A DNA stretch of 64,000 bases from assembly GCA_964385105.1 (NCBI GenBank), contig CAYLMU010000002.1:53672-117671 (forward strand), read 5' to 3'. The notes under the pieces are model-generated. The model made no database searches, was not told where the DNA came from, and was given only the letters and a program-made list of their open reading frames with translations. The stretch comes from an uncultured Candidatus Saccharibacteria bacterium (lineage in GTDB: Bacteria > Patescibacteriota > WWE3 > UBA101185 > UBA10185). A program made the position numbers and the translations under genes. This document shows positions 5,878 to 57,091 of this stretch, in pieces (the stretch's first letter is position 1; each line of letters starts with the position of its first letter).

Positions 5878-5961
5878 AAAGTTTGTTTAATATCTATTCT
5901 AAATAGTGTTGTAGGTATAGACAAATATGGACACTTCTGTATAATAATGATTGCTATGACA

Positions 5962-28231: not shown

Positions 28232-28239
28232 ATTTTTAT

Positions 28240-29100: not shown

Positions 29101-29105
29101 ATAGT

Positions 29106-39825: not shown

Positions 39826-39878
39826 TGCATATGTAGCGTGAAGATTGATACAATAAATCTGCATAGCTATTGCTGCCC

Positions 39879-41657
39879 ATGTTAGATACAAAAATTGATA
39901 CAAACAAAGGAATAGAAGATGTACTGTATGAGCGTAACCTTATTAATGCCGACCAGTTGTCTGCCATTAAATTTGAACACGTTAATACCGGTAAAAATAC
40001 TCAGCAAATTATTAAAGAGCGCGGTTACGTAACAAATGAGGATTTTGTTAAAGCGTATGCGGAAGTATATGGAATTGAGTATATTAATCTGGAAGAAACC
40101 AAATTTGATAATACTGTATTAGATATTTTAAGCATTCAAATTGAAAAAAGGTATCAGGTTGTGCCATATAGGCTTGAAGGGGATATTTTGCATGTGGCAA
40201 TGGCTGACCCCTTAGATTTACAAACTATTGAGTTTTTAGAGCAAAAATCCGGATATCAGATAAAACCTTACGTTTCAACAGTTAAAGAAATAGAAAAAGT
40301 ATTAAGTGAGCAGCAAGGAAAAGCAATAACTCAAGAAATAAGTGCTGCAATGGAGGAGATTTCGCAGACTACCTTAAAGCTTAAGGGTGACTCGGGAGAT
40401 ATTGAAGCTGATGAAGCAACAATTAGAGATGCCCCGATTGCAAGAATTGTTGGAATGATACTTGAAACGGCAGTAAAAATAGGTGCATCCGACATTCACA
40501 TAGAACCTTTAGAAACTTTAACAAGACTGCGCTACCGAGTTGACGGTGTTTTGCTTGAAAAAAGGACTTTTCCTAGAGAAATGCACGATTCTATTGTTGC
40601 CCGTATAAAAATCCTGGGAAACATGAAAATTGATGAGAAAAGAATTCCTTTGGACGGCAGGTTTAAGGTTCAGGTGGGTGAAACAAGTACAGACCTTAGA
40701 ATTTCAACTCTACCTTCGGTTTATGGTGAAAAAGTTGTTATCAGGTTGTTAAAAGAAGAAGGAAATGTTTACACATTTAAAGATTTGGGGTTGCGTGGTT
40801 TGTCGCTAAAAAGATTTGAAGAAGCATTAATTAAACCGGTTGGGATGGTTTTGGTAACAGGGCCTACGGGTTCGGGTAAAACGGTTACAAATGCTACTGC
40901 TTTAAATAAATTAAATACAATAAAAGTAAATATTGTGTCAATTGAAGACCCTGTTGAAATTAGGGTGCCCGGTGTAACACATGTTCAGGTAAATCCTCAG
41001 GCAGGTTTAACATTTGCAACAGGATTAAGGTCATTTTTGCGACAAGACCCAAACATTATAATGGTGGGAGAGATACGAGACCAGGAAACTGCTGAACTTG
41101 CAGTACATGCCGCGTTAACGGGGCATTTAGTTATATCCACATTACACACAAATTCCGCAGCCGGTGCTCTACCCCGTTTACTTGATATGGAAGTAGAAAA
41201 CTTTTTATTGGCGTCTACTGTAAATGCTGTTTTAGCACAAAGACTTGTTAGAAGAATTTGTGAGTTTTGCAAAGAATCATATGAGGCTCCCGTAGAAGTT
41301 GTTGCAGAGATTAAGAAAGTTTTTGAAGATATTGAACCAAGCTCAACCATAATGCACAAAGACAAAGAAATTGCCGAAGCTATTAAAAAGATTAAAACCG
41401 ACAGTAAAATTGATTTATATAGAGGTAAAGGTTGTGATAAATGTGGGGGTAAAGGTTATAAAGGCCGAGTTGGAATATTTGAAGTTCTTGAAATGTCAGG
41501 CACAATTGCTCATTTAACATTAGAAAGTGCCCCTGCCGACAAAATTGAGAAAGCAGCAAAAGATGAAGGCATGATAACATTAATGCAAGATGGATATTTG
41601 CGTGTTGTTGAGGGTGTTACAACGCTTGAAGAAGTTATGAGAGTAGCAAAAAGTTAG
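39879..41657 (+). CDS. pilB: Type IV pilus assembly ATPase PilB (GspE family) with N-terminal MshEN-like domain and zinc finger
   Basis: Walker A GPTGSGKTVT; Asp box; His box; CDKCGGKGYKGRVGIFEVLE tetra-Cys motif. Confidence 0.9.
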   Translation: MLDTKIDTNKGIEDVLYERNLINADQLSAIKFEHVNTGKNTQQIIKERGYVTNEDFVKAYAEVYGIEYINLEETKFDNTVLDILSIQIEKRYQVVPYRLEGDILHVAMADPLDLQTIEFLEQKSGYQIKPYVSTVKEIEKVLSEQQGKAITQEISAAMEEISQTTLKLKGDSGDIEADEATIRDAPIARIVGMILETAVKIGASDIHIEPLETLTRLRYRVDGVLLEKRTFPREMHDSIVARIKILGNMKIDEKRIPLDGRFKVQVGETSTDLRISTLPSVYGEKVVIRLLKEEGNVYTFKDLGLRGLSLKRFEEALIKPVGMVLVTGPTGSGKTVTNATALNKLNTIKVNIVSIEDPVEIRVPGVTHVQVNPQAGLTFATGLRSFLRQDPNIIMVGEIRDQETAELAVHAALTGHLVISTLHTNSAAGALPRLLDMEVENFLLASTVNAVLAQRLVRRICEFCKESYEAPVEVVAEIKKVFEDIEPSSTIMHKDKEIAEAIKKIKTDSKIDLYRGKGCDKCGGKGYKGRVGIFEVLEMSGTIAHLTLESAPADKIEKAAKDEGMITLMQDGYLRVVEGVTTLEEVMRVAKS

Positions 41658-41682
41658 TATTTAAGTTTTAGGAGCCCTGCCC

Positions 41683-42762
41683 ATGGCTTTAAACACATCA
41701 CAAATATTAGAAAAAATTATTGAGCTGAGTGCATCAGACTTGCATTTAACTGTTGGAATGCCTCCTGTTATTAGAGTTAACACAAAATTAATGGTTCTTA
41801 AAGACCATAGTGTGTTAACTATTGATGAAATCTCACAATTTTTAACAAAAGTTTTAACACCTGAACAAAAAAATGTATTTGAAGTAAACAAAGAAGTGGA
41901 CTTTTCAGTAGCTCTTGGTAATAAAGCAAGGTTTAGGGTAAATGCTTTTTATCAAAAGGGTTACCCTTCGGTAGCGTTAAGAACAATACCAATGGTAGTT
42001 CCCTCTTTAGAAAGTTTACATTTACCTCCGGTACTTACAAAACTCACGCTTTTAAAGCAAGGGCTTGTTTTAGTTGTTGGACCCACCGGGCATGGTAAAT
42101 CTACCACAATTGCGTCAATGATTGACCACATTAATGAAACACGCTCTGAACATATTCTTACAATTGAAGACCCTATTGAATATATTTTTACAAATAAAAG
42201 ATCACTGGTTGAGCAAAGAGAAATGTATCTTGATACCCATTCATGGGATGCGGCTTTACGTTCTATTTTAAGGCAAGATCCAAATGTTGTATTTATTGGC
42301 GAGATGCGTGACACCGAAACAATTCAGTCAACATTAACAATTGCAGAAACGGGCCATTTGGTATTTGCAACACTTCATACAAATTCAGCGTCTCAAAGTG
42401 TAGACAGAATTATTAGTTCGTTTCCCGAAATTAAGCAACTTCAAATAAAAATGCAGCTTTCACAAGCTTTGGAAGCAGTTGTATCTCAGCGATTAATCGA
42501 ATCCCCCAACAAAGGAATGATTCCTGCAATTGAATTATTGTTAGCCAGCGACGCGGTTAAAAGTACAATAAGAGAAGGTAAAACACATCAGCTTGAAAAT
42601 ATTATAAGTACAAGCTCAAACATTGGAATGATAAATATGGAATCAAGTTTGGCACTTTTGGTTCAAAAAGGCGATATAACCATGGATAATGCATTAAAGT
42701 TTGCAATGAATCCTGAGTTATTGCGTCGCCTGTTAAAAAGTTATAGTTCAACAGAAAAATAA
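41683..42762 (+). CDS. pilT: Twitching-motility (retraction) ATPase PilT
   Basis: GPTGHGKSTT, GEMRD and AIRNLIRE-like motifs; 359 aa; AGGAG SD. Confidence 0.9.
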   Translation: MALNTSQILEKIIELSASDLHLTVGMPPVIRVNTKLMVLKDHSVLTIDEISQFLTKVLTPEQKNVFEVNKEVDFSVALGNKARFRVNAFYQKGYPSVALRTIPMVVPSLESLHLPPVLTKLTLLKQGLVLVVGPTGHGKSTTIASMIDHINETRSEHILTIEDPIEYIFTNKRSLVEQREMYLDTHSWDAALRSILRQDPNVVFIGEMRDTETIQSTLTIAETGHLVFATLHTNSASQSVDRIISSFPEIKQLQIKMQLSQALEAVVSQRLIESPNKGMIPAIELLLASDAVKSTIREGKTHQLENIISTSSNIGMINMESSLALLVQKGDITMDNALKFAMNPELLRRLLKSYSSTEK

Positions 42763-42768
42763 AACAAT

Positions 42769-43971
42769 ATGGCCGAATTTAACTACATTGCAATGGATAA
42801 TAAAGGTACAAGAAAATCAGGTACCGTTGATGCCCGTTCACGGGATACAGCTGTTTCACTTTTAAAAGAGCAAGGATACTACGTTTTATCACTTGAAGAA
42901 AAAAAATCTACATTTATGGATTCGTTTATAGAATTACGAGGTGTGCCGTTTGGTGACGTTGTTTCATTTACAAGGCAGTTTTCTACAATGATAGGAGCCG
43001 GTTTGGCTATTTCAAAAGCATTAAATGTACTGGCCGCACAAACTACAAATAATAAATTCAGAGGAATATTAAATGATGTATTGCGCGATGTAGAAGGAGG
43101 AGCGTCGTTAGCCGGGGCTTTGGGAAGGTTTCCTGACACTTTTTCTACAACATATCAGTCCTTGGTGGCTGCGGGTGAAGCGTCTGGCCGTCTGGATGAG
43201 ATTTTAAAAAGGCTTGCAGATACAATGGAGGCTGAGAGAGCCTTAAGGGCTAAATTTAAATCTGCAATGATTTATCCGGTAATAGTTTTAATTGCAATGG
43301 GAGGTGTTTTTATTATTTTAATGGTGTCTGTTGTACCTAAGCTTGCACAACTTTACGAAAGCATGAATATAGACCTTCCTTTAACCACTAAAATGATGAT
43401 TGCAGTATCGGAATTTATGTCTAATAATCTTATTTTGGTGATTTTAGGCATTTTTGGAACAATTCTTGGAATTCGATACTTTTTGCACACTCCCGGCGGC
43501 GAACTATTAAAATCAAGACTTTCACTTTCTATGCCTGTTTTTGGAAAGATAAATAAAAAGAAAGAATTAACCGAATTTACACGAACATTAGGTTTATTGG
43601 TAAATTCAGCAGTACCCATTGTAGATGCTTTAAATATTGTTAGTTCAGTTGTTACAAGCGAGGCGTATCGTGAAGGTGCAAAACAGGCAGCCGTGAGTAT
43701 AGAAAAAGGCGGAACTTTATCAAATTATTTAAAGCAAAATGAAAATTTTCCTCCAATTCTAGGAAACATGGTAGCCACAGGTGAAGAAACAGGAAAACTT
43801 GATGAAATTTTAGAAAGACTAGCCGACTTTTTTGACGAAGAAACAGAACATGCGGTTGAGAGTTTATCTGCCGCACTTGAGCCTGTGATATTAATTTTAC
43901 TTGGTGCAATGGTTGGATTTTTGATCATTTCGATTATTACACCTATTTACAAAATTACTGCTTCTATATAG
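42769..43971 (+). CDS. pilC: Type IV pilus platform protein PilC (GspF family)
   Basis: Two GspF repeats and 3 TM helices; N-terminal MAEFNYIAMDNKGTRKSGTVDA. Confidence 0.9.
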   Translation: MAEFNYIAMDNKGTRKSGTVDARSRDTAVSLLKEQGYYVLSLEEKKSTFMDSFIELRGVPFGDVVSFTRQFSTMIGAGLAISKALNVLAAQTTNNKFRGILNDVLRDVEGGASLAGALGRFPDTFSTTYQSLVAAGEASGRLDEILKRLADTMEAERALRAKFKSAMIYPVIVLIAMGGVFIILMVSVVPKLAQLYESMNIDLPLTTKMMIAVSEFMSNNLILVILGIFGTILGIRYFLHTPGGELLKSRLSLSMPVFGKINKKKELTEFTRTLGLLVNSAVPIVDALNIVSSVVTSEAYREGAKQAAVSIEKGGTLSNYLKQNENFPPILGNMVATGEETGKLDEILERLADFFDEETEHAVESLSAALEPVILILLGAMVGFLIISIITPIYKITASI

Positions 43972-44001
43972 CAAAATTACTGAAAGGGGGTGACAGAGAA
44001 A

Positions 44002-44511
44002 ATGAGAAATGGAAATAAAGGTTTTACGTTAGTTGAGCTTTTGATTGTTGTTGCAATTATTGGTATTTTAGCCGGTGCTGTGTTAATTGTTATTAACCCT
44101 ACCGAATTAATTAGAAGAAGCAATGACTCAAAAAGATTATCTGAGCTTGATACATTGAATAAAGCTCTTATTTTAGCAACAACCGATGGTGAAATAGTAT
44201 TAACAGCATGTGCTTCAAACTGTACTAGCGCAACAGGAACACAATCTATTGCCGGTTCGGGTTATGTCACATTCACAATTAATACAGGTATGACCGGATT
44301 AGGAAAATATCTTTCTACACTGCCTGTTGATCCGGTTAATGACACTGCAAGAGGTTTGTACTACTCTTACCAGGCAGATGCAACCAACCAGACATTTGAG
44401 TTAAACGCAGTTCTTGAGTCTTCACAGAACAGTGGAAGAATGGCAGCAGATGGTGGTAACGATAACGCAGTATTTGAGATTGGAACAGATCCCGGTCTTG
44501 ATTTACTATAA
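44002..44511 (+). CDS. pilA: Type IV pilin (class III signal: MRNGNKG|FTLVELLIVVAIIGILA)
   Basis: Prepilin cleavage site G/FTLVE with Glu at +5; AAAGGGGG SD; own terminator downstream. Confidence 0.8.
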   Translation: MRNGNKGFTLVELLIVVAIIGILAGAVLIVINPTELIRRSNDSKRLSELDTLNKALILATTDGEIVLTACASNCTSATGTQSIAGSGYVTFTINTGMTGLGKYLSTLPVDPVNDTARGLYYSYQADATNQTFELNAVLESSQNSGRMAADGGNDNAVFEIGTDPGLDLL

Positions 44512-44546
44512 AGCGTTATTATAAAGCTTAGCTTTGTATTAAAGCA

Positions 44547-44586
44547 AAAAGACCTGCTTATTTAATAAGCAGGTCTTTTGTTATAC
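44547..44586 (+). terminator. Rho-independent terminator after pilA
   Basis: aaaagacctgcttatttaataagcaggtcttttgtt. Confidence 0.6.
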
Positions 44587-44594
44587 TTTAAAGT

Positions 44595-45476
44595 ATGGAA
44601 ATTTTATTCTATGGGCTAGTATTTATTGCCGGTTTATTTATAGGTTCTTTTTTAAACGTAGTTTCAGACCGAGTGGTAAACGGTAAAAAACTTTTACTTG
44701 GACGCTCTGAATGTGATGAATGCCGCACCACACTTGGTTCAAAAGACCTTGTTCCCCTACTCTCTTTTATATCTTTGCGTGGCAAGTGCCGGTATTGTAA
44801 AGCAAAACTTTCATACTACTACCCTATTTCAGAAATTCTAACCGGATTAGTATTTGTTGGAATTGCACATTTACTCAACTTTTTTGAAAACGCCAACAAT
44901 TATTATGCGTGGGTTATGCTGGCATATTTAATTTTTATCGGAAGTGTTTACATTGTGCTATTTTTAACTGATATTAAATATACGCTAATACCCAATAAAG
45001 TGGTCTATCCTGCTATAGCCGTAATTGTATTATTCCTAATCGGAAACTTTTTGTACATAGTTTATAGTTCTTACAATAGTTTGCAAAGTGATGCTTTAGG
45101 CCCTTATTTAATCGAATCCGGTTTTTGGCAATTGCAAATGAGGCGAATGTTTATGGGGCTGGTTTACACTTTTATAAGTACTGTTGTAATTGCAGGGTTT
45201 TTTTGGGTATTGACGCGTATTAAAAATGGTGAAGCAATGGGCGGAGGAGACTTAAAACTTGCTATTTTAATTGGTTTGTTTAACGGATACCCGCGCAATA
45301 TTTTGGCAATTTTTTTGGGATTTTTATTTGGAGCTATAGCTAGTGTGCTGCTAATGTTCTTAAGGCGTAAAGGTATGAAGGATACTATTCCTTTTGGGCC
45401 GTTTTTGATTTTAGGAAGTGTTATTGCGTTTGTTTTTGGTAATAGGTTGATTGAGCTATATTGGGGGTTGTTTTAG
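44595..45476 (+). CDS. pilD: Prepilin peptidase PilD (A24 family) with N-terminal tetra-Cys zinc motif
   Basis: CDECRTTL...CRYCKAKL; 8 TM helices; catalytic Asp regions. Confidence 0.85.
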   Translation: MEILFYGLVFIAGLFIGSFLNVVSDRVVNGKKLLLGRSECDECRTTLGSKDLVPLLSFISLRGKCRYCKAKLSYYYPISEILTGLVFVGIAHLLNFFENANNYYAWVMLAYLIFIGSVYIVLFLTDIKYTLIPNKVVYPAIAVIVLFLIGNFLYIVYSSYNSLQSDALGPYLIESGFWQLQMRRMFMGLVYTFISTVVIAGFFWVLTRIKNGEAMGGGDLKLAILIGLFNGYPRNILAIFLGFLFGAIASVLLMFLRRKGMKDTIPFGPFLILGSVIAFVFGNRLIELYWGLF

Positions 45477-46251
45477 GGTTTGTTTTTTAAGGAGTAGTGT
45501 TTACTTAGTACTGTAGCTACTATTTTATGAAGCACTTCGTCTTCCACTATTTTCATTGAATACGTCCTAAAAAAGTCTGCAAGATGGTATGAAGCATACA
45601 TTAATGGGTCATCTCCATATTTATGACCGACTTCAATATATTTTTTAAGTCCGTAGTTTAATCCGTGTATGGGTATATCCCCCATTTCTACATCGTCAAA
45701 AAATTCTTTGTTGAAAACTTTTACTAAATCTAATGCTGCTTTTTCGTGTTCGGGAGTTGCGTTTTTATATTGATAAAGATAGTAAGCAGTATTTAAATTT
45801 TGGAGTAGGTGTTTTTTAAGTATAGATGCATTATAAACTACATAATTATATTGAATAATTGAAATATTCTTTAAGCTAGAGGTATAGTTTCTGGGGTCCT
45901 TAAAAACCCATACTAAGTGCTTAAAATTAACATGTCCCAGTCATACGCGCGACTACAAGTAACTGTGCTACTTGATGTAAATTTATAAATGGGAATAGAT
46001 TTTTGCCCCTATCTATTCTCATAAGATGCGTTTACTAGGGGCTTAGAGTTGTATACCAAGAATAATGAAACTTCAAATTTAGGAGCATATGTAAATTATT
46101 TTATTGTTAGCTTTTGAACGTGAGTTTGGTGTAGAATTTGATGGGGATTTTAAAGGCAGGACACCCCATAGTTGCATTACTTTACTGATACTGTATAATA
46201 GTCCGTAATTTAGAAATAACCGGCATAAGCCGGATAGCTCCTGGAGAGAAA

Positions 46252-46629
46252 ATGATGAAAAGATTAACCCTTTTAGTTCTGGTAGTGGTAGGGATGATTG
46301 TTACTTTGGGAATCAATGGTAGTGCTTTGTCATCGCCAGATGTTTCTGGCGGAGCACTTGAAATTGGGACTCCGGTAATCGTAATCCGTTATGATGGGGG
46401 GCAGTTAACAGTTGCTACGCTTGAACCATCCTCAAGAGTTTTTGACTTTGAGGTGGATGTAGCATCTGTTACTTTCCTAGAGTGTGGAGCCGTTGAACAC
46501 GTCCCCGTGTTTGCAGGTGATACAGGACTATTTGCCGGAATTTCCGAGGAAGTGTGGAGTAACGAACGTGTTGCAAGATTTAATCTTCAACAGCCGTTTG
46601 ATGCCTGCAACATCCTATACGGTAGATAG
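46252..46629 (+). CDS. Small secreted protein (125 aa) with signal peptide; GC-rich gene
   Basis: MMKRLTLLVLVVVGMIVTLGINGSALS; GGAGAG SD; hairpin terminator at about 46645-46690. Confidence 0.5.
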   Translation: MMKRLTLLVLVVVGMIVTLGINGSALSSPDVSGGALEIGTPVIVIRYDGGQLTVATLEPSSRVFDFEVDVASVTFLECGAVEHVPVFAGDTGLFAGISEEVWSNERVARFNLQQPFDACNILYGR

Positions 46630-46712
46630 CACTTTGTTTGTAAATCCGGATCGGTTTGTTTGCTTATGGTAAACATAGCCGATCCGTTTCATTCCGATTT
46701 AGCTAAATATCA

Positions 46713-46741
46713 TTGACATGTAAAAAAATCATTGTCATAAT
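46713..46741 (+). promoter_or_regulatory. Candidate promoter (TTGACA, 17 nt, CATAAT with an upstream TGT) that would give a leaderless or very short-leader mRNA for the 46750 gene
   Basis: cattgacatgtaaaaaaatcattgtcataatttattgtaATG. Confidence 0.35.
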
Positions 46742-46749
46742 TTATTGTA

Positions 46750-47376
46750 ATGTCCAATTATAGCCCCGAAATAAATTTGAATCTTAGTGAAAGTAGACGT
46801 GGGAATAGAAATTTGATCCTTGTTTCACTCCTAATAATTTTTGTTTTTGCTGTCACTTTATTGCTAATTTATACATATTATTTAAATTCAACAACTGAAA
46901 ATCAGGCCAAAGAAGACTCAGATATGTTGTTAAATACAGTTCCGCAGGATAGCTATAATGTAGTGTTTCCCAATGTTTCCTATTCAATTGATGCTGATGG
47001 AATGTGGAGACTAAAAGTATTTCAACCTATACTTAAAGAATTCGTATCTGAAAACGGGAATAATTATTTAGTGGTGGAATATGATGAAGGCAGTACAAAA
47101 GTTTCAAAAAGAGTGTTTGTAACGTCTAATAATACGGAATATTTGGATAGGATATCATTTAAAGAAGGTGATAACTTAAAACTTGTAACATTCGATGAAT
47201 TAAAGCAATTATTAAATACTGAAGGGCGGATTAGTATAAGTTATTTTGAAACAACCCCCACTATTGAATCGCTTACGGATGATTTTTGTTCCAATTTAGT
47301 TAGAAGATGCGCTTTAGCACGTTTGGATGTGGAGTATAAAAGCTATTTCATATCAAGTGAGGTTATAGAGCAATAA
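46750..47376 (+). CDS. Hypothetical N-terminally membrane-anchored protein (208 aa)
   Basis: TM helix LILVSLLIIFVFAVTLLLIYTYY; its stop overlaps the start of the next gene. Confidence 0.5.
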   Translation: MSNYSPEINLNLSESRRGNRNLILVSLLIIFVFAVTLLLIYTYYLNSTTENQAKEDSDMLLNTVPQDSYNVVFPNVSYSIDADGMWRLKVFQPILKEFVSENGNNYLVVEYDEGSTKVSKRVFVTSNNTEYLDRISFKEGDNLKLVTFDELKQLLNTEGRISISYFETTPTIESLTDDFCSNLVRRCALARLDVEYKSYFISSEVIEQ

Positions 47377-50354
47377 TGAAGAAAATTAAGTTTATTATTT
47401 TTTTTACAATTTTTTTACTTACATTTTTATATATTAACAAAAGCAATGTATTAAATGCTTATAGTGATATATTTTGTTCTGCTGGACAATATTGTTCTGG
47501 TGTAGGTACATATCAGAAACGCGTTGGATGTGTTACGGTTCCAGATAACGACAACTATGCAAGTTGTGTCACTCAGTACTCATCACAACCTGTTGTGTGT
47601 CTACAAAGTGACTGTACATATGAAGGTTTTGAGACAGGGAGTTGGTGCCGAGAAAGTGTAATTCACATTGATAGGCAGGGTGCGTGTACTACAATAACTG
47701 ATGATTACTATGTGTCGGGTACCTGTTGTCAGCAAGCCGGAGGATCTACTGGATACTGTGGTGATGGGGTGTGTCGTGCTGGAGAAAGTAATTCGAGTTG
47801 TCCTGCAGATTGTCCTCCCCCACCGCCTCCTCCTGATCCGGAAGCCTATTGTGGAGATGGTACCATAGACCCTGGCGAAACATGCAGTAATTGTCCGGCA
47901 GATGTTGGTGCTTGTCAAAATTTCTGCGGGTGTCTTCCTGATCGGTGCAATAGAGACGAATCGCAATGGCCCGGTAATGGCAGTTGCATAAGAACACCTG
48001 ATTGTGGAGCAAATATTTGCCCGGGGGGCGCACATGGTTGGTACTGTGCCTGGCCAAATAGTAACGCCTGTAACAATCCGGGTCCAGCTACAGAAAATGT
48101 TGTAGGTTATGTGAAAGATCAAAACGGCAGTCCGGTAAGTGGTGTGCCTATGACAATTCTTTACAAAAACAGTAGTGGTACCACAATATCTGGTACAGAC
48201 ACTAGAGTGACAGACTCTAATGGTAGGTTTGTATTTGAGAATTTGATAAATAGGCAACATTATGAAGTCAAACCAGGCCTCACCGCCGACCAAATGTTAG
48301 CATGGGGTTTCACAAGTGCTGGAACTGCCGAAGCATGCGGTAATGATTACAACTGCAAAAACCACTTTAATGGAGGTGCTCAGGTACCGGTAGGTTCGCC
48401 ATCATATAATGGCCAAAGAGTTGGGGAAATTGGGTTTGACGGTACTATGCACGGTGATGGTTGTGGTGCAAGAAAATGTTATGTTGGACCAAACTCCACC
48501 GGTGTCTGTAATGATGGCAACCGTGGAAGTTATTCGGGATCAATCGTACACCACTCAGAATGGCCATCCGGTGGGCACTGTAACTTTGTATTCAACAGGC
48601 AAACAAACAACCCTCCTACCGGTTACTTTCACTATTTAGCACATTACAGGGGTACAACACTTCTTGGTGTATGGGGAAACAATAGTAATATTGGTAATGG
48701 TGTTGTTATATACCCACCTGCTCCGCCAGCTCCCATTGGTCAAATATTTGTACAGCCGGGAGATCATATTTTAATGTATGGTACCGGCCATGATTCCGAT
48801 GCTAACTTAGGGCGTATAAGATTTATAAAACAAAAATTCAATCCTGAAACAAATGCCGTAATCGGAACTTATTCATATATGCCTGCAACAACTCAAACCA
48901 ACTGTTCTCCAAGTTCAACATGTTATGAAAATGGCGGTGAGGTTTGGAATATTACTGCAGCAGACGTAGGTACCTGGTCAGTAAGCATTGAAGTTGGCGA
49001 TCGTACAATGGTTAATTATGATTTGAATAATTTAAATAGTACATTCAACAGCAGATGCTCCGGTCATAGATGGGTAAACCCATTAAAATGGAGTGACTGC
49101 GGAAACGGTGATACATTTACCGTTCATGTAAGAATTCCTCCTACTTATACAATTTCCGGAGAAATAAGAGAAATTGTGCCACTACCTACAGGGCATCAAT
49201 GTGCATCGCACAATTTAGATTTTATGAATAACTCAAAAATAAGTAATGATGGCAGTTTAGATTCAACCGGTAATGATGACCCTCGCGAACAGTTTTATTC
49301 GACTAATCAGTCGGCTCCACCAAATCCGGATGATGGGGATTGGGAAAGTACGCCTGGTAACGGCTTTGAAATTAGGGGTGTTCCACCAGGAACGGGAAGG
49401 TTTCTGGCCGCAAGTACACTTCATGTGGATCGTCACAATGGTATAGGATATAGGTTAAAGTGTATATCTGTTCCCGGATTCGGCGTACATGACCTTTCTA
49501 GTGGTACAACACCCAACTTTGTTAACATCACACAAAATTTAAGTGGAGTAAGATTTGGTTACGAATACTTTCTTACATACAACAGCGGATGGCTACAAGG
49601 TTGGGACGGTGACGTTTTTGGAGGATCTACCGTTAACTTTAATATCCATCCGGATCAGAGATTAGGCAGGGGTCTTGCCACTGCATTCTCGGGTAACTTT
49701 GTGTCCGGAGTGGCTCCGGCGAAAAGAGCAGAATCAAACCGCTGGGCAAACAATGTTTCAGACTCATTTTGGCCTCCACAATTCAGCACTGAAGCTCCTG
49801 CAGGAGCCATTCAAATTTCAAACTTAAGTAACTTGGCTGAAAACACTATTTATAAAATAACGGCTACAGAACTTAATGCAATATTAAATCAGCAGGGACG
49901 GTTAGATTACACTATTGCTAATATAGCCGGAAGTCCGGGGGGCGTTGCACTTGTTTATGTAACCGGTACAAATACAGTAACAGTTAACAGAAGTATGGTA
50001 AGTGCAGATGACCCGCGCGATAGAATTTTATTTATATCAGAAGCACCATTTGTATATGCTGTACCTACAGTCCCAACTCAACCTGGTTCGGCACAGATTC
50101 AGTTTGGTTTGATTACCACAAGTTCAATTACATTTCCAACCCTAGTAGCAGAAAACAGTCCATTTCCTGACACGTCGGTATCTGTTGAAGGGCCGTTAAT
50201 TGCTAAAGGAGACATTGTAGTTGAAAGAAATCTTAAAGAAGGAAATGCTCAAACTCCTGCAGTAAGAGTATTATATAGCCGGGTTTATCTTGATAGTATA
50301 AGAAGATTTGAAAATCCGTTAAGGCAGTATAGTGTTAGATGGGAGACAAATTAA
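47376..50354 (+). CDS. Large secreted Cys-rich protein (992 aa) with a poly-Pro linker and a CarboxypepD_reg-like/Cna-B-like beta-sandwich segment. By position it is a candidate pilus-associated adhesin
   Basis: Signal peptide MKKIKFIIFFTIFLLTFLYI; more than 30 Cys in the first 280 aa; PPPPPPPDPEAYCGDG; VVGYVKDQNGSPVSGVPMTILYKNSSG...TDSNGRFVFENL. Confidence 0.6.
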   Translation: MKKIKFIIFFTIFLLTFLYINKSNVLNAYSDIFCSAGQYCSGVGTYQKRVGCVTVPDNDNYASCVTQYSSQPVVCLQSDCTYEGFETGSWCRESVIHIDRQGACTTITDDYYVSGTCCQQAGGSTGYCGDGVCRAGESNSSCPADCPPPPPPPDPEAYCGDGTIDPGETCSNCPADVGACQNFCGCLPDRCNRDESQWPGNGSCIRTPDCGANICPGGAHGWYCAWPNSNACNNPGPATENVVGYVKDQNGSPVSGVPMTILYKNSSGTTISGTDTRVTDSNGRFVFENLINRQHYEVKPGLTADQMLAWGFTSAGTAEACGNDYNCKNHFNGGAQVPVGSPSYNGQRVGEIGFDGTMHGDGCGARKCYVGPNSTGVCNDGNRGSYSGSIVHHSEWPSGGHCNFVFNRQTNNPPTGYFHYLAHYRGTTLLGVWGNNSNIGNGVVIYPPAPPAPIGQIFVQPGDHILMYGTGHDSDANLGRIRFIKQKFNPETNAVIGTYSYMPATTQTNCSPSSTCYENGGEVWNITAADVGTWSVSIEVGDRTMVNYDLNNLNSTFNSRCSGHRWVNPLKWSDCGNGDTFTVHVRIPPTYTISGEIREIVPLPTGHQCASHNLDFMNNSKISNDGSLDSTGNDDPREQFYSTNQSAPPNPDDGDWESTPGNGFEIRGVPPGTGRFLAASTLHVDRHNGIGYRLKCISVPGFGVHDLSSGTTPNFVNITQNLSGVRFGYEYFLTYNSGWLQGWDGDVFGGSTVNFNIHPDQRLGRGLATAFSGNFVSGVAPAKRAESNRWANNVSDSFWPPQFSTEAPAGAIQISNLSNLAENTIYKITATELNAILNQQGRLDYTIANIAGSPGGVALVYVTGTNTVTVNRSMVSADDPRDRILFISEAPFVYAVPTVPTQPGSAQIQFGLITTSSITFPTLVAENSPFPDTSVSVEGPLIAKGDIVVERNLKEGNAQTPAVRVLYSRVYLDSIRRFENPLRQYSVRWETN

Positions 50355-50355
50355 C

Positions 50356-51327
50356 ATGAATAAAAAAATAGTCAACAATTCAGAAAAAGGACAAGTTTTA
50401 CTTTTTGTAATAGTAGCGATGACTATTGTGTTGGCACTGGGTGTTGGTGTATCGCTTGATACTATTTCATCAATAACACAGGTAAGCAACACTGATACGT
50501 CTCAAAGGTCACTTGCGGCAGCAGAAGGCGGAGTTGAGAAGTTTTTGGTACTTGATAATTCTTTGTTACGACAGTTTGCTGATATTGCCGGGAGTCCTAA
50601 TGACGGTAGATGGCCATTATTATGTGCCAATATACCTGGTGTGACAACAGAACCTTTAGAAGGTGGGGGCTATGCCGGTTGTAAAGTAACTTACCAGGGT
50701 GCAACAGGAGCAAATGGAGATCCCATTGACGCTAAAGCTGTAGTTAAAGTTGAGGAATATACAACTAATACTACTACCGGAAATGGGTCAGAGATAAATA
50801 TTTTGAGAAATGATGTAGGTGAATTTGATTTACGAGGATATACACATTCTAACTTAACAATGTGTTGGAATCATAATAATGCAATTGACCTTTATGTAAC
50901 CGGCCATACCTATGTAGCCCCACAAACAACAAAAATCATATTAAGATGTCAAAACTGTGGTAATGGTTCACAATGGGATTTTGGAACAGCAAACGTACTT
51001 ACTGCAACTAGTTCTGGCAATGGATATACATCTTGCAGACAGCTCCAAATAAGCCAGGGTCATTTTCCTAGCAACCCAGCTTTTATAAGAGTAAGACCAT
51101 TATTTAAAGCTTCTCCACCTGTACAAAGCGTTGAGGTTGCAATATTCCCGCAGGGAGGTCACAGTTTACCTGTTCAAGGCTACAAAATCACATCTGTAGG
51201 GTCACTTACCGACAATACAAACGTTCAGGTCACACGAACTGTAACAGTATATAAATCAAATCCCACTCCTATAGGATTATTTGATTTTTCTGTGTATTCC
51301 GGTGAAGACCTTTACTCGATTTTATAG
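50356..51327 (+). CDS. PilX-like minor pilin/pilus-associated protein (non-cleaved hydrophobic N-terminus)
   Basis: MNKKIVNNSEKGQVLLFVIVAMTIVLALGVGVSL; paralog of the 54645 gene. Confidence 0.5.
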   Translation: MNKKIVNNSEKGQVLLFVIVAMTIVLALGVGVSLDTISSITQVSNTDTSQRSLAAAEGGVEKFLVLDNSLLRQFADIAGSPNDGRWPLLCANIPGVTTEPLEGGGYAGCKVTYQGATGANGDPIDAKAVVKVEEYTTNTTTGNGSEINILRNDVGEFDLRGYTHSNLTMCWNHNNAIDLYVTGHTYVAPQTTKIILRCQNCGNGSQWDFGTANVLTATSSGNGYTSCRQLQISQGHFPSNPAFIRVRPLFKASPPVQSVEVAIFPQGGHSLPVQGYKITSVGSLTDNTNVQVTRTVTVYKSNPTPIGLFDFSVYSGEDLYSIL

Positions 51328-51457
51328 CTTAATAAATGTTTGATTATTGACAGTATATAATTGCTGGTTCATACTTAAATATAGTAAGTCTGCCCATGTT
51401 AAACATTAAACAAATTTTAAAAAAATTTCATATACAAAACTTAAATAACGAAGGGAG

Positions 51458-51901
51458 GTGCAGAGCATGTTAAAGAGAACTAATGAAAAAGGTTTTACGT
51501 TAGTTGAGCTTTTGATCGTTATTGTAATTATTGGTATCTTGGCAGGATTAGTTATTACAATTATTAATCCTCGAAGAATGCAAATGAGATCAGGCCATTC
51601 AATTATAAGGGCTAATGTCGGTAGGGCTTGTCAAGCGATTATTGCATGTGCTTCTTCAACAACAACACCTGAAACATCTTGTAACACTGGTGCTTTAGCT
51701 GGATTTAATCAACCAAATACACCTAATGGTCAACCGTATCCAGTTAACCCTACTGTTAGTGCGCAAACGATTACATATGCAAATACACCTGTTGCTGCAT
51801 GGGATAACTGTCAATATACTTGCACATACTATAGGACTACTGTTGGTGGAAACCAAGGTGGTTCAAGCACTTTAGTAGGAACAAACTGTATCGACAACTA
51901 A
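51458..51901 (+). CDS. Type IV pilin and major-pilin candidate (MLKRTNEKG|FTLVELLIVIVIIGILAG)
   Basis: GAAGGGAGGTG SD; candidate upstream promoter (TTGACA at about 51345); strong terminator immediately downstream; 4 Cys in the C-terminal half. Confidence 0.8.
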   Translation: MQSMLKRTNEKGFTLVELLIVIVIIGILAGLVITIINPRRMQMRSGHSIIRANVGRACQAIIACASSTTTPETSCNTGALAGFNQPNTPNGQPYPVNPTVSAQTITYANTPVAAWDNCQYTCTYYRTTVGGNQGGSSTLVGTNCIDN

Positions 51902-51923
51902 CAACTTGCAAGAATTATTTTCA

Positions 51924-51953
51924 ACCGCCCCGGATATTCCGGGGCTTTTTTTT
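51924..51953 (+). terminator. Rho-independent terminator
   Basis: gccccggatattccggggc tttttttt. Confidence 0.7.
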
Positions 51954-51992
51954 AGCCTTGACACAAAAATAACATACAGCCATACTATAAAT

Positions 51993-52508
51993 ATGAAAAA
52001 ACTGCCCCGAGGTTTTACTATTATTGAGCTTTTAATTGCTGTTGTACTTATTGGAATACTTTCAGGACTCGTTATTGCAGTTATTAATCCCCGTACGTTT
52101 CAAGGCAGGGGTCGTGACGCTCAAAGAGTTAGCGACTTAAAAACAATTCAATCTGCACTTGAACTTTATTTTTCGGATAATAGACGTTACCCTATTTCCG
52201 CTTGGACAAGAATACGTGGCAACGATACTGTAACAAATGCGCTCACAAGCGGAAACTATATAAACTCAGTACCTGTTGATCCCATGGCTTCTGGCTCACA
52301 AGATAATCCATGCGGGGGCGGTATAACCGGTTACAATTACCGATACAGATCTACCGAAACTGGCACAGCATACGTGTTAACAGCTACAATGGAGAATGCT
52401 AATTCAAATCAGGGTAATGAATGTAACGGATTAAATAGATGGAGTGCGTTAGGATGTTCATTATCTGCGCGAATGGCTGATGTGTGCTATGGAGTTGAAA
52501 ATCCTTAA
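51993..52508 (+). CDS. Pseudopilin/minor pilin (MKKLPRG|FTIIELLIAVVLIGILSG), GspG/PilE-like
   Basis: Class III signal with Glu at +5; the track ORF begins at 51906 but the pilin leader begins at the ATG at 51993. Confidence 0.7.
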   Translation: MKKLPRGFTIIELLIAVVLIGILSGLVIAVINPRTFQGRGRDAQRVSDLKTIQSALELYFSDNRRYPISAWTRIRGNDTVTNALTSGNYINSVPVDPMASGSQDNPCGGGITGYNYRYRSTETGTAYVLTATMENANSNQGNECNGLNRWSALGCSLSARMADVCYGVENP

Positions 52509-53001
52509 AAAAACTGATTCAAACTATGACCAAGGTATATCCATAATTGAAGTCCTTGTAGTTATTACAATGGTTGCCTTACTATCTACTCTAGCATTTG
52601 TGTTAATAAATCCACAGGAACTCAAGGCTAAAGCACGCGATGAAAAGCGTTTATCTGATATATCAACATTAGAACGTGTTATAAGTGAATTTAGAGTTGA
52701 TAACGGGTATTTACCCGATGAATTGGGTGTAATTAGAACCAGTACTTCCCTACCCACAGGAGCTTTGGGCCCTCTTGTACAATCAAACGGCAACGGATGG
52801 ATTCCTGTAAATTTATCTGTATATAATTCTTTGCTTCCAATTGACCCGATTAATAATGAAACGTATCATTACAGCTACAGTAATAACGGTTATTCATTTG
52901 AACTAAATGCCCGTTTAGAAATTCTCACCGAGCATGCCCAGGATGACGGCGGTAATGACGGTACGCTTTATGAAGTAGGTGATGATTTGAGCATTATTTA
53001 G
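52489..53001 (+). CDS. Pseudopilin/minor pilin (QG|ISIIEVLVVITMVALLS)
   Basis: Prepilin-like N-terminus; overlaps the upstream gene. Confidence 0.6.
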   Translation: MELKILKKTDSNYDQGISIIEVLVVITMVALLSTLAFVLINPQELKAKARDEKRLSDISTLERVISEFRVDNGYLPDELGVIRTSTSLPTGALGPLVQSNGNGWIPVNLSVYNSLLPIDPINNETYHYSYSNNGYSFELNARLEILTEHAQDDGGNDGTLYEVGDDLSII

Positions 53002-53016
53002 TGTTATTATTTTAGT

Positions 53017-53580
53017 ATGAGTCTGCCCGATTTTAGTAATAATTCCCAAGGTTTCACAATTATTGAGATTCTAGTAGTAGTTTCACTAATTGCTATATTA
53101 ACCGGGCTCACAATACCAAACTTTACAAGTTATTTAAGGGCACAGGCGTTAAAACAAGCTCAAGATCAAATTGTTGTAGATTTAAGAAAAATTCAAAACA
53201 GAGCTTTATCGGGTGTTGGTTATCAGCCAAACGGAAATACAACTCACTGGGGTGTTTTGTTTAGAAATAACACTAATACATACCACTATTTTATTGCATC
53301 AAGAAACCCCATAAACTATTCTTCATCTTGTAACGATGCGTTAACAAATGTGGGTAGTCTTGAATCAAGTAGCCCACTTCCCGAAAACATAGTCATTAGA
53401 ATGGCAAGTGCCCCAATTCAGTGTATATATTTTGATTTTGAACGGGGTAATAGGGTGAGTCATCCATCAAGTTTGACTACCATTAGAGTTTCGCGTCCCG
53501 GAGATACACAATGTATTGGCATTGAAACAACTAATGTAGGCCGTATAGCAAGTCTTTCAAATCCTTTGTCATGCAACTAA
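53017..53580 (+). CDS. Pseudopilin/minor pilin, FimT/GspH-like (SQG|FTIIEILVVVSLIAILTG)
   Basis: Class III signal. Confidence 0.65.
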   Translation: MSLPDFSNNSQGFTIIEILVVVSLIAILTGLTIPNFTSYLRAQALKQAQDQIVVDLRKIQNRALSGVGYQPNGNTTHWGVLFRNNTNTYHYFIASRNPINYSSSCNDALTNVGSLESSSPLPENIVIRMASAPIQCIYFDFERGNRVSHPSSLTTIRVSRPGDTQCIGIETTNVGRIASLSNPLSCN

Positions 53581-54068
53581 AAAAACTAAACGAAAAAGGA
53601 ATAGGATTAGTAGAAACAATAATTGCACTTGGCGTTGCTGTAATTGTTATAACATCCCTTGTGTCACTTTCGGTTTATACCTTGCGTACCTCTAATCGCG
53701 GAAAATTATATTTACAAGGCTCAAAGCAGGCTAATGAGGGTTTAGAACTTGTGAGAGCATTTAGAGATCAACAGCCGACCTGGAACGATGTTATTGTTGC
53801 ATTTCAAAATTGCGATAATGGAGCATTGTGCCACATATCTACAAGCGGTTCTTCTTTGTCGCCGCGACCTGGAGAATTTATAAACACAAATGGTACGACC
53901 GCTACTGCTGACGACGTGTTTTGGTACTTTACTGCCAGGGGTTCAGGAAGTAATATAACCGCCACCGACAATGTAATAAGAATTCAGGTTAGATCCAGAT
54001 GGTTTGTTGGAGATGATGAAGTTGATGCTTATGTTTACACTGATCTTTCAAACTGGAGGAACAGGTAA
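53571..54068 (+). CDS. Pseudopilin/minor pilin, PilV/GspI-like (NEKG|IGLVETIIALGVAVIV)
   Basis: Class III signal; overlaps the neighbouring genes. Confidence 0.6.
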   Translation: MQLKKLNEKGIGLVETIIALGVAVIVITSLVSLSVYTLRTSNRGKLYLQGSKQANEGLELVRAFRDQQPTWNDVIVAFQNCDNGALCHISTSGSSLSPRPGEFINTNGTTATADDVFWYFTARGSGSNITATDNVIRIQVRSRWFVGDDEVDAYVYTDLSNWRNR

Positions 54069-54069
54069 C

Positions 54070-54642
54070 ATGAACCAAAAGGGTTTTACGCTTGTGGAAT
54101 TACTAGTGATCATTACACTTTTGGCTGTTACGGCCGGCGTTACTGCAGATATTGTATTAACACTGGTTAGAAGCTATAACAAAACCCGTGTTACTAATGA
54201 AGTTGAACAAGTAGGTAATTTTGCCATAACCAAAATAGAAAAAGAGCTAAGATCGGCAACAAGTGTAGTATCACCGAGCATTGGCGCAAGTAGCAATTCA
54301 ATATGTTTTTTAACAAAAATAGGAAATAATGATCGAAGTGTACAGTATGTGGTAGATCCGGTGTCGGGATTATTAAGAAGATCGGAGTTTACAAATTCAA
54401 GTGGTTGTACTGGTGGAACAGTACCTGCAGGTACTGATCCTGTGTTTAGCGTAGGTCAGGGAGGGGTAAGAATTTCAGGTGCCAGTGCTAATTCGGCATT
54501 TACCCGCTTAAGTACCTCACCAGATGTTGTAAAAATTAAATTTGAATTTACGCAATCTAGCGAAGATTCTGCAGGAGGAAGGGCATTTACCGGAAACGTA
54601 ATACTTGAACAAACAGTTGTAGTTCGTGGAACTTACAATTAA
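54070..54642 (+). CDS. Pseudopilin/minor pilin, PilW/GspJ-like (MNQKG|FTLVELLVIITLLAV)
   Basis: GGAGG SD upstream of the ATG at 54070; the track ORF starts earlier at 54004. Confidence 0.65.
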   Translation: MNQKGFTLVELLVIITLLAVTAGVTADIVLTLVRSYNKTRVTNEVEQVGNFAITKIEKELRSATSVVSPSIGASSNSICFLTKIGNNDRSVQYVVDPVSGLLRRSEFTNSSGCTGGTVPAGTDPVFSVGQGGVRISGASANSAFTRLSTSPDVVKIKFEFTQSSEDSAGGRAFTGNVILEQTVVVRGTYN

Positions 54643-54644
54643 CC

Positions 54645-55457
54645 ATGAAACAAGAAAATTCCCAAAAAGGACAAACTTTAATAATTATAGTTTTTATCAT
54701 GATTGCCGCCCTCGCAATTGGTGTGAGTGTATCAAACAGATTTATTACAACTTTATCTATTACAAGTGACGCTTATGCCGGTTATCAGGCTCAGGCTGTA
54801 GCAGAAGCAGCGATTGAAAATATTTTGACTTTAACATCTACACAGCTCAAAGAATTTATTCAATTTAATTCTTGTGGTTCATACTGCCAGCTTGAAATTG
54901 TGGGTCCTGACGGTGTTGTTCAAACCGCAACTGTTACATTAAGCACTTTAGGAACTGATTCTCAGCCTTTTACTACTCGTTTAAGTAGAGATGAAATTAC
55001 AGAAATTAATTTAAACGGGTATGGTAATAATAAAACACTAAGTGTTTGTTGGAATGCACCACCATCAGGAGAATTACCTTCGGTTTATGGAATTTTACTC
55101 AGAGGTACACAAGGCAATTATGTTGCAAATAACTATGCATATTACTCAGCAGGAAGCAGTCAAATTAATGGATTTTCACCGGCAGTAAGCGCTAACGGGT
55201 ATCAAAATTGCATGATTTTAAATACAGGAACAAACCCGCAGGCACTAAGAGTGAGGTCGATTTATAATGATGTTGAAGTCACAGTGATACCTGATTCAAG
55301 TGCTACATTGCCCACTCAAGGAATCTTAATAGAATCCGTTGGGCGTGTTCAAGACAGTGTAAAAACAGTTTCGGTTATAAAATCAGAAAACATGGTTCCG
55401 CTTGATTTTGACTACATTTTGTATCAAAAATCCGAATCAGAGCCTTTATCAAATTAA
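54645..55457 (+). CDS. PilX-like protein, paralog of 50356-51327
   Basis: MKQENSQKGQTLIIIVFIMIAALAIGVSVS. Confidence 0.5.
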   Translation: MKQENSQKGQTLIIIVFIMIAALAIGVSVSNRFITTLSITSDAYAGYQAQAVAEAAIENILTLTSTQLKEFIQFNSCGSYCQLEIVGPDGVVQTATVTLSTLGTDSQPFTTRLSRDEITEINLNGYGNNKTLSVCWNAPPSGELPSVYGILLRGTQGNYVANNYAYYSAGSSQINGFSPAVSANGYQNCMILNTGTNPQALRVRSIYNDVEVTVIPDSSATLPTQGILIESVGRVQDSVKTVSVIKSENMVPLDFDYILYQKSESEPLSN

Positions 55458-55479
55458 CCATGTGCTGTAAAATAAAGTT

Positions 55480-56505
55480 ATGCCCCAAATCGGACTTGAT
55501 ATTGGAAGAAGCTTTTTTAGAGCTGTAGAAATAAAAAAAGATAAAGATGTGAATATTCTTCAGAATTACGGTACTTATGATGGTCCTGACCTTGATTTAA
55601 ACTTTTCAAGCGAAGACAGTATAAATACTTATGCCTCAGAATTAAGCCATTTTTTTAAAGAACATAATTTTAGTACTTCTAAGGTAGTAGTGGCACTGCC
55701 CGAACAATATGTTTTTATAAGAACAATAAAAGCTCCAAATATGTCACATAAAGAATTGCGTGAGTTTGTGACCCTTGGTGCAGAAGAATACATTCCCCTG
55801 CCCTTAAATCAAGTTACTTTTGATGCACAAATTATTGAATCAAACGGCAAAGACGAAATGAGTGTGCTTTTGGTAGCCTCAAAAAATGAAATCTTAACAA
55901 AATATGTTGATTTAATAAAACGTGCCGGCCTCATACCTGTTGGTATGGAGCCTGAAACTTTATCTATTGAAAGAGTGTTGGGTGATACGGGTCAAAGACC
56001 AAGTGCCAGTATTATTGTAAATATCGGTACTGCATCAACACAAATTATAGTTACATACAAAGGTTTTGTAAGATTTACTAGAAGTTTGTCTGTTGGCGGC
56101 GATACCTTAACAAAAGCTATTGAAAAAAACCTTGAACTTGATTATCACCAGGCTGAAGAATATAAAAAAGCCTATGGTTTGGATGAGAGTCAGGTGGATG
56201 GCAAGGTTTTTAACGCGGTAAAAACAGTTTTTGACAACATTTTGCTTGAAATAAAGCGTTCCAAAACATACTATACAACTCACAATCCCGATGTTACTAT
56301 AAATAGAGTTATTATGTCTGGAGGTACTGCCCTAATGCCGGGACTATTACTTTATATAGCCAATAAACTTGATGTGGAAGTAGAATTGGCAAATCCGTGG
56401 CGAAACATTAAATTGGCGGAATCTCTCAAAAATCATCGAAATGACCTTATGGATGCAGGTCCTGTGTATGCAACAAGTGTAGGACTTTCGTTAAAGGAAA
56501 TCTAA
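55480..56505 (+). CDS. pilM: Type IV pilus assembly protein PilM (actin-like ATPase fold)
   Basis: IGLDIGRSFFRAVEI... FtsA/PilM-like with two RNase H-like subdomains. Confidence 0.8.
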   Translation: MPQIGLDIGRSFFRAVEIKKDKDVNILQNYGTYDGPDLDLNFSSEDSINTYASELSHFFKEHNFSTSKVVVALPEQYVFIRTIKAPNMSHKELREFVTLGAEEYIPLPLNQVTFDAQIIESNGKDEMSVLLVASKNEILTKYVDLIKRAGLIPVGMEPETLSIERVLGDTGQRPSASIIVNIGTASTQIIVTYKGFVRFTRSLSVGGDTLTKAIEKNLELDYHQAEEYKKAYGLDESQVDGKVFNAVKTVFDNILLEIKRSKTYYTTHNPDVTINRVIMSGGTALMPGLLLYIANKLDVEVELANPWRNIKLAESLKNHRNDLMDAGPVYATSVGLSLKEI

Positions 56506-56506
56506 A

Positions 56507-57091
56507 ATGGCACAAAGTATAAATCTTATTCCAAAAGAAGAAAAATTTGAACAACGCAAAGAAAAAGTAGTTAAGTTAAGCTCTGTAATTGCTGTTGTTA
56601 TTTTATTAGTTGTGATTGGAGTTAGCACCTACTATTGGTATACCGTAAATAATTTAAAAACATCCATTAAAACAGCAGAAACCCGCACTGAAGACCTAAG
56701 AACCGATATAAGAGGTTTATCTGAAATTGAAATCGTAGCAAGGTCACTTGATGCAAAATACAACATTTTAAATGACATCTTTACAAATCGAAAGAGATAT
56801 TCTGTTCTATTAAGCGAACTGCAAAGAAGAGTTCCTGAAGGTGTGACTATTGAGTCATTAACTATAACCGGAGTTGCCAATGAAAATGTAAATATTGCCG
56901 GACAAGGTCCAGATTATATTTCAATTGCACGTTTCATTAACACGCTTTCTGACACTCAGTTTTCAAGCGCCACGCCAGGTATGGAAGATATGTTTCATGA
57001 TGTAACGCTTAATACAGTCACTTTTGACTCTCAGGATTCAACGGTAAGCTATTTTATAGTTACAAAATTTAATGAGGCTTTACTTAAATAA
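56507..57091 (+). CDS. pilN: PilN-like bitopic protein
   Basis: INLIPKE...single TM...periplasmic domain; translationally coupled. Confidence 0.7.
   Translation: MAQSINLIPKEEKFEQRKEKVVKLSSVIAVVILLVVIGVSTYYWYTVNNLKTSIKTAETRTEDLRTDIRGLSEIEIVARSLDAKYNILNDIFTNRKRYSVLLSELQRRVPEGVTIESLTITGVANENVNIAGQGPDYISIARFINTLSDTQFSSATPGMEDMFHDVTLNTVTFDSQDSTVSYFIVTKFNEALLK

Follow-up and report, generated by a model that had tools for sequence, protein, structure and literature searches.

In Patescibacteria, attachment to the host is believed to be mediated by type IV pili. In Nanosynbacter lyticus TM7x, type IV pilus locus 1 gathers PilB, PilT, PilC, PilD, PilM/N/O and several very divergent pilins in one cluster; its PilX-like proteins lack a clear prepilin signal, and pilins and accessory proteins are poorly conserved between lineages (PMC11623550). 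We analyzed a 64-kb stretch of contig CAYLMU010000002.1 from an uncultured Candidatus Saccharibacteria bacterium (hereafter the window; 36% GC, coding density about 88%), in which a single large type IV pilus cluster of 18 kb occupies positions 39870-57963 of the + strand. With TM7x locus 1 it shares the organization as a single cluster, the same pil genes, divergent pilins and PilX-like proteins. The subject of this report is a 1.3-kb segment of the cluster (45477-46749) that directly follows pilD. An earlier reading of the sequence (the original prediction) described it as a mostly non-coding insert with one small GC-rich secreted protein, and proposed that it could be a regulatory RNA region, the remnant of an insertion, or a small secreted effector co-regulated with the pili.

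Overall, we consider the segment to be a lineage-specific, fast-evolving stretch of the pilus cluster, with an operon boundary inside it and two orphan coding sequences, one of doubtful status, and neither an RNA gene nor a recognizable mobile insertion; we give this reading a probability of roughly 55%. Every feature named by the original prediction is present where it was placed. However, the reading as a mostly non-coding insert fails, as open frame with the statistics of coding sequence makes up about two-thirds of the 1273 nt. The main elements are as follows.

44595-45476, + strand: pilD, prepilin peptidase gene, the last recognizable gene of the upstream pilus unit (Pfam A24_N_bact 4.7e-27, Peptidase_A24 2e-10)
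45473-45940, - strand: convergent orphan reading frame of 155 sense codons and a TAA stop, recognized by its open run, codon usage and periodicity
45938-46251, + strand: spacer of 314 nt with no coding signal (six frames closed, periodicity p 0.32)
46252-46629, + strand: orphan gene for a small acidic protein of 125 aa with two cysteines and a predicted Sec-type signal peptide or N-terminal anchor, recognized by its Shine-Dalgarno site, N-terminus and coding statistics
46647-46686, + strand: probable intrinsic terminator, an interrupted stem of 18 bp followed by UUUCAUUCCGAUUU (-24.3 kcal/mol, z -5.0, 0/200 shuffles as stable)
46713-46741, + strand: near-consensus sigma-70-type promoter, TTGACA-17-CATAAT with a TG (11/12 positions, the best site in the region)

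Between the pilD stop at 45476 and the next + strand open reading frame (ORF) of at least 60 aa with a canonical start, at 46252, there is a gap of 775 nt. The claim that about 570 nt of it are free of ORFs holds if an ATG, GTG or TTG start is required, but the minus strand is stop-free for 155 codons. This reverse-strand frame is open from 45940 to 45476, and its TAA stop at 45475-45473 overlaps the pilD stop (TTAG). The sole canonical start within it is the ATG at 45685, which yields the annotated 70-aa product, the antisense ORF at 45473-45685 that had already been noticed and that a gene caller also reported on a second assembly (SRR9016296). The ORF list shows 70 aa only because ATG, GTG and TTG are all absent from codons 1-85, where the alternative starts are limited to CTG, ATT and ATA. 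Of 5000 first-order Markov simulations of the gap, with all six frames counted, 0.02%, or about 1 in 5000, contained a run of 150 or more codons free of stops. Against a composition-matched stop-free null, the codon-usage z-score was 2.82 over the entire frame, 2.06 over its initial 84 codons and 2.04 over the last 70, comparable to that of the neighboring 208-aa gene (z 2.6). Three-base periodicity was likewise marked over the whole frame (p 2.4e-6) and over the first 85 codons (p 2.5e-4), with G enriched at codon position 1. Because codon usage and periodicity hold in both halves and the open run is improbable, we conclude that the reverse-strand frame, which converges on pilD, codes for protein along its whole length or did so until very recently. 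Its product would be either the 70 aa from the only ATG or a longer protein from a non-canonical codon. A genetic code in which TGA is a sense codon was considered as a way of extending the frame and rejected, since the next upstream stop is TAG and no extension results.

The frame is an orphan by several searches. A word-indexed protein search returned only the frame itself, and an exhaustive phmmer search of 1.84 billion representative proteins returned its own 70-aa annotation and a single 1174-aa repeat protein (P0004). The latter was matched seven times through a short KKGNYTS-type motif and was discarded as a repeat-inflated artifact. No match to the frame was found in Pfam (E up to 10), PHROG, NCBIfam, PADLOC, the PDB or phage sequences.

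The second coding sequence, the 125-aa ORF at 46252-46629, was present as predicted and looks like a real gene. A Shine-Dalgarno site (GGAGAG) lies 5 nt 5' of its ATGATG start, and both codon usage (z 3.4) and periodicity (p 2.6e-5) are those of a coding sequence. The N-terminus consists of MMKR, 17 hydrophobic residues (hydropathy up to 2.7) and NGSALSS, which corresponds to the n/h/c layout of a signal peptide. From this layout, export through the Sec pathway or membrane anchoring is predicted; the h-region is long enough for an uncleaved anchor, and a single-sequence AlphaFold model of the protein gives a confident helix for residues 3-26 only. Among the three options put forward for the segment, that of a small secreted protein is the best supported, by the Shine-Dalgarno site, the Sec-like N-terminus and the coding statistics, and the nearest relative also carries a secreted-protein gene after pilD.

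The elevated GC content of this gene was also borne out, although most of it has a simple source. At 0.45, against a gene mean of 0.363 (sd 0.034), it is the second highest of the 66 ORFs in the window, with GC1/GC2/GC3 of 0.58/0.42/0.35 and the highest GC1 of the window. The protein contains 18 Val, 13 Gly, 9 Ala, 14 Asp plus Glu and 1 Lys, and it is mainly this composition, rich in Val, Gly, Ala, Asp and Glu and poor in Lys, that raises GC through the first and second codon positions. Extracellular proteins tend toward low-cost residues, and the 125-aa protein follows that tendency. A low-cost amino-acid bias has been noted for pilin proteins (PMC11623550). Two lessons for annotation follow from the segment: a gap defined by canonical starts concealed a 155-codon coding-like frame, and a GC-rich island reflected the amino-acid composition of a putatively exported protein.

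The class III signal of type IV pilins combines a short basic leader, G at -1, F or M at +1, E at +5 and a hydrophobic helix (Pfam N_methyl). We rejected the 125-aa protein as a pilin or pseudopilin, given that it has no N_methyl match at E up to 10 and that its MMKRLTLLVLVVVGMIVTLGINGSAL N-terminus lacks the G-F-T-L-x-E motif; this motif is carried by seven neighboring genes. A word-indexed search returned only the protein itself, and no match was found in Pfam (E up to 10), PHROG, NCBIfam, PADLOC, the PDB, phage tblastn or IMG/VR. Its alignments with the 322-aa and 475-aa proteins of the nearest relative and with the 992-aa protein of the window were not significant. Neither ORF had a relative in 161 PilD-centered loci searched with tblastn and phmmer. 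Exact-protein look-ups of PilC, the pilin, PilD and the 125-aa protein led to a single sample only, which makes a comparison of strains impossible.

Several points weigh against the reading of two orphan genes. The reverse-strand frame lacks a canonical start for 85 codons, a Shine-Dalgarno site before the ATG at 45685 and a promoter-like site upstream on the minus strand, and it may thus be a dead relic. In addition, pilD has no terminator of its own, so that read-through from it would run antisense to the frame. Neither ORF has a single homologue, and therefore no conservation or dN/dS argument supports expression or function. The 125-aa protein was searched for by the word-indexed method only, which leaves its orphan status less secure than that of the reverse-strand frame, and its signal peptide is read from the sequence and from the N-terminal AlphaFold helix only. 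Single-sequence AlphaFold models of both ORFs reached a pLDDT of 40-41, which is unusable. Finally, the contig derived from SRR9016296 is 100% identical across 7026 nt spanning the segment, but it may share reads with the source assembly and thus may not be independent of it.

The strongest alternative is that the frame is a recent relic, namely a gene convergent with pilD that lost its 5' end and start, the spacer being the scar of a deletion, rearrangement or insertion. We regard this as unlikely, yet as a serious contender. It would explain why codons 1-85 carry no ATG, GTG or TTG, a situation seen in just 3% of 85-codon windows of real genes in the window, and why the frame has neither a Shine-Dalgarno site before its ATG nor a promoter-like site upstream on its strand. 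All frames upstream of 45940 are closed, and the lack of homologues as well as the different junction in the nearest relative would also fit. However, a neutral stretch of 155 codons in DNA of 31% GC would gain stops fast, so the relic would have to be very young, and neither 15 billion proteins nor the window contain an intact parent or paralogue. Moreover, neither repeats nor mobile-element genes were found at its flanks.

The tests for an insertion as such were negative throughout. No boundary repeats, whether terminal or flanking, and no transposase were found; the segment has no second copy longer than 20 nt within the 64-kb window and no paralogues; and searches of Pfam, PHROG, NCBIfam, PADLOC and phage sequences gave no mobile-element match, nor any phage or defense match. 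The idea of an insertion remnant is thus deprived of its usual marks, although the start-less frame leaves room for the relic of a truncated gene. A diversity-generating retroelement target, considered in view of the surface-protein setting and of the hairpin past the stop codon, was also rejected: 45477-46749 is not repeated elsewhere in the window, and selected ORFs were scanned with no search aimed at a reverse transcriptase. Upstream, pilD is not truncated, as residues 2-292 of its product align with PilD of the nearest relative.

A further explanation for the missing start is a frameshift, real or due to assembly error, that splits a reverse-strand gene of about 180 aa. A 31-codon ATG ORF (46022-45927) overlaps, in a different frame, the 5' end of the 155-codon frame, a change of 1 nt near 45930-45943 would fuse the two, and the ATG at 46022 would then provide the start. 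We consider this very improbable, since the 31-codon ORF has neither a coding signal (z 0.4) nor a Shine-Dalgarno site, the second assembly is identical, no homopolymer run occurs at the junction, and no homologue supports a longer protein.

Between the two coding sequences lies the 314-nt spacer, in which the 125-aa gene probably has its promoter and 5' leader. Three elements within it deserve mention.

45989-46022, + strand: hairpin of 12 bp with a 10-nt loop (inverted repeat I5, 92% complementary)
46172-46199, + strand: promoter-like motif TTGCAT-16-TATAAT, read from the sequence (9/12 positions, not statistically distinctive)
46220-46233, + strand: short GC hairpin CCGGC-ATAA-GCCGG, 7 nt 5' of the Shine-Dalgarno site of the 125-aa gene

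It is plausible that the TTGCAT-16-TATAAT motif and the CCGGC hairpin serve as promoter and leader elements of the 125-aa gene. The CCGGC hairpin was called terminator-like by a scan on the minus strand only, and 1.1 such sites are expected by chance. The first hairpin, described before as gaatagat/atctattc, does exist; its arms span 45989-46000 and 46011-46022. G-U pairs form only on the + strand and make the hairpin more stable there (-13.0 kcal/mol, z -3.6) than on the - strand (-8.2 kcal/mol, z -1.1). As an intrinsic terminator it was rejected, as no U-tract follows the stem.

Could the spacer, possibly together with the transcript of the 125-aa gene, be a novel structured regulatory RNA or long leader that controls the pilus accessory module? 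The whole spacer folds on the + strand with a z-score of -2.5 (0/100 shuffles as stable), the hairpin at 45989-46022 is stable on that strand only, and the presumed transcript at 46206-46700 is a GC island in an AT-rich genome with a fold z-score of -5.8. Nevertheless, we find such an RNA gene quite improbable. Windows of 120 nt across the gap gave fold z-scores of -1.8 to +1.5, inside the window-wide background (mean -0.24, sd 1.3), and a scan of the gap against Rfam 15 at E up to 10 matched nothing. In the wider region 45400-46800 the same threshold returned only ncr1175, at 16.5 bits against a gathering score of 60, on the terminator hairpin. At gathering score, Rfam found two tRNAs only in the whole window, and ARAGORN found no tRNA or tmRNA in the region. 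The suggestion of a regulatory RNA region is thus left unsupported. Furthermore, what is structured is at the same time an ORF with a Shine-Dalgarno site, a predicted signal peptide, coding usage and strong periodicity, for which a structured mRNA is a better fit than an RNA gene; a covariation test is impossible without relatives.

The folding of the 125-aa coding sequence itself is the observation of wider interest. Its fold z-score was -3.8 against dinucleotide shuffles; permuting the codons and shuffling synonymous codons each gave -4.0, the latter with 0/120 shuffles as stable. The synonymous shuffle was calibrated on 378-nt segments of 27 other genes of the window, on four further segments of two of these genes, and on the reverse-strand frame; apart from the outliers, these segments gave z-scores of about -1.9 to +0.9. 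Two segments of a 370-aa gene stood out (z -4.1 and -4.5), as did one of the three taken from the 992-aa gene (z -3.2). Of the 112 windows that made up the dinucleotide background, the only one to reach z -3.8 belongs to the 370-aa gene. Excess structure over synonymous shuffles thus appears in three GC-elevated secreted-protein genes, and if it held across the genome, it would suggest that the mRNA structure of exported proteins is under selection. The sample is small, and the pattern was noted post hoc. Exported proteins may be under selection for the stability or translation of their mRNAs, or past mutation may have tended to create inverted repeats; the coding assignment of the 125-aa gene is not overturned by the pattern. 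Base pairing of the mRNA of this gene may stabilize the transcript or tune its translation.

The 370-aa gene at 3252-4364 (+) resembles the 125-aa gene in several respects. It has a signal-peptide N-terminus, an elevated GC content (0.47), orphan status and excess mRNA structure, the strongest of the window (z -5.6 by dinucleotide shuffle). Neither a Pfam family nor a homologue other than itself was found for its product, so no profile could be built. A weak alignment between the 370-aa protein and the mature 125-aa protein includes a VxRF/YxLQQP motif and is not significant (shuffle p 0.04, BLASTP E 0.12). In contrast to the 125-aa gene, this gene is three times longer, has a GC3 of 0.49 instead of 0.35 (window mean 0.28) and lies outside the pilus cluster. 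We speculate, as a long shot, that 46206-46700 is a selected, highly structured RNA that also encodes the 125-aa exported protein. Together with 3252-4364 and a portion of 47376-50354 it would then form a class, specific to this lineage, of transcripts of secreted orphans that are high in GC and rich in structure. If true, the RNA fold itself might control the stability, localization or translation of surface or pilus accessory proteins in an ultra-small symbiotic bacterium.

Two observations adjoin these genes. In the gene for the 992-aa protein with Ig-like domains (47376-50354, +), the z -3.2 segment lies around +1500 nt, and a stretch of 50-53% GC is found at 47700-48100. In the 527-nt gap before the 3252 gene, positions 2815-3075 (+) have about 45% GC and a fold z-score of -4.2, and end in a long perfect hairpin followed by nine U, a textbook terminator. 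This stretch had no Rfam match and may represent a small RNA not described before, or else a leader of terminator type for the secreted-protein gene that follows.

Downstream of the 125-aa gene, both the hairpin and the TTGACA/CATAAT promoter were confirmed. Only part of the terminator tail UUUCAUUCCGAUUU is rich in U, and because of this imperfect U-tract the site is missing from the consensus scan. The promoter lies 27 nt beyond the terminator and is a sequence match only, from a region in which 7 promoter-like sites were found against 5.6 expected from shuffles. A repeat is superimposed on it.

46705-46719 and 46724-46738, + strand: tandem repeat D2 of 15 nt, overlapping the -35 and -10 elements

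Spaced 19 nt apart, two copies of AAAWATCATTGWCAT overlap these elements; they are the only copies in the window, and the pair could act as an operator. Neither TGGGAATAGA nor AAAWATCATTGWCAT shows enrichment in the window. The -10 element ends 8 nt before the ATG (46750) of the 208-aa gene, and no Shine-Dalgarno site precedes this ATG; translation of the gene may thus start on an mRNA that is leaderless or nearly so. Judged by the sequence, terminator and promoter likely split the pilus cluster into two transcription units. The terminator would end a pilB-pilT-pilC-pilin-pilD(-125 aa) unit, and the strong promoter would start a second unit running to pilMNO.

The genes around the segment agree with the description of a pilus locus on both sides. 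On the 5' side, PilB, PilT, PilC, a pilin and PilD were recognized by Pfam matches. On the 3' side follow the transmembrane (TM)-anchored 208-aa protein, the 992-aa signal-peptide protein with Ig-like domains and two PilX-like proteins, and then six pilin-like genes with class III (G-F-T-L-x-E) N-termini and PilM, PilN and PilO, identified by Pfam and by reading of the N-termini. All pilus genes are intact under table 11. The genes at 50332-51327 and 54645-55457 (+) encode N-termini (KGQVLLFVIV and KGQTLIIIV) that are PilX-like hydrophobic segments without the pilin-typical Glu5, and their products resemble TM7x PilX1 and PilX2, which were described without a predicted PilD signal. The gene-poor gap after pilD had been called unusual in so compact a genome. 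It is indeed the second largest of the window, but it is not unique, as others measure 874, 527, 423 and 411 nt. The 874-nt gap (28232-29105), the largest ORF-free gap of the window, lies directly 5' of a tyrosine recombinase gene (29106-30137; Phage_integrase 7.8e-46) and had no Rfam match at gathering score.

Among relatives, the best PilD matches came from metagenome-assembled genomes (MAGs) of Candidatus Saccharibacteria at 53% identity and from Staskawiczbacteria and Paceibacterota at 38-39%; nothing closer than 53% was found in GTDB representatives or JGI/ENA metagenomes. The nearest relative is locus L082 (Ga0233431_1000149; also L083 and L002, a "Candidatus Saccharibacteria" MAG). It has the pilin, PilD, a signal-peptide protein, a TM-anchored protein, large secreted proteins and a PilX-like protein in the same order as here. 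Its pilD is followed, after 142 nt, by the genes for a signal-peptide protein of 322 aa, a TM-anchored protein of 275 aa, two large secreted proteins and a homologue (28% identity) of the 331-aa PilX-like protein of the cluster studied here; the second large secreted protein is homologous to the C-terminal third of the 992-aa protein (26% identity). In contrast to the segment studied here, the 142 nt contain no convergent frame, and the 322-aa and 275-aa proteins have no detectable similarity to the 125-aa and 208-aa proteins. At this junction, an unrelated secreted protein fills the same slot. A slot for a secreted protein directly after pilD is thus conserved, whereas its content is not, from which we infer that the 125-aa gene is part of a variable accessory module and not foreign cargo. 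The gene would head a series of variable secreted or anchored proteins that precedes the minor pilins. L082 also differs in a 618-aa ABC-transporter gene (4078-5934) between the major pilin gene and pilD, which shows that several junctions of the pilus clusters of this lineage are open to unrelated genes.

Variable pilus accessory proteins are candidates for host specificity, and an orphan, putatively exported protein embedded among them, should it be linked to pilus function, is a reasonable target for study. Compared by description only, TM7x locus 1 differs from the cluster analyzed here, in which a 1.3-kb stretch with a start-less frame, the 125-aa gene and a terminator/promoter pair is placed between pilD and the rest. 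Taken together, the segment is a new instance of a familiar kind, that of orphan accessory genes in hypervariable loci for surface structures.

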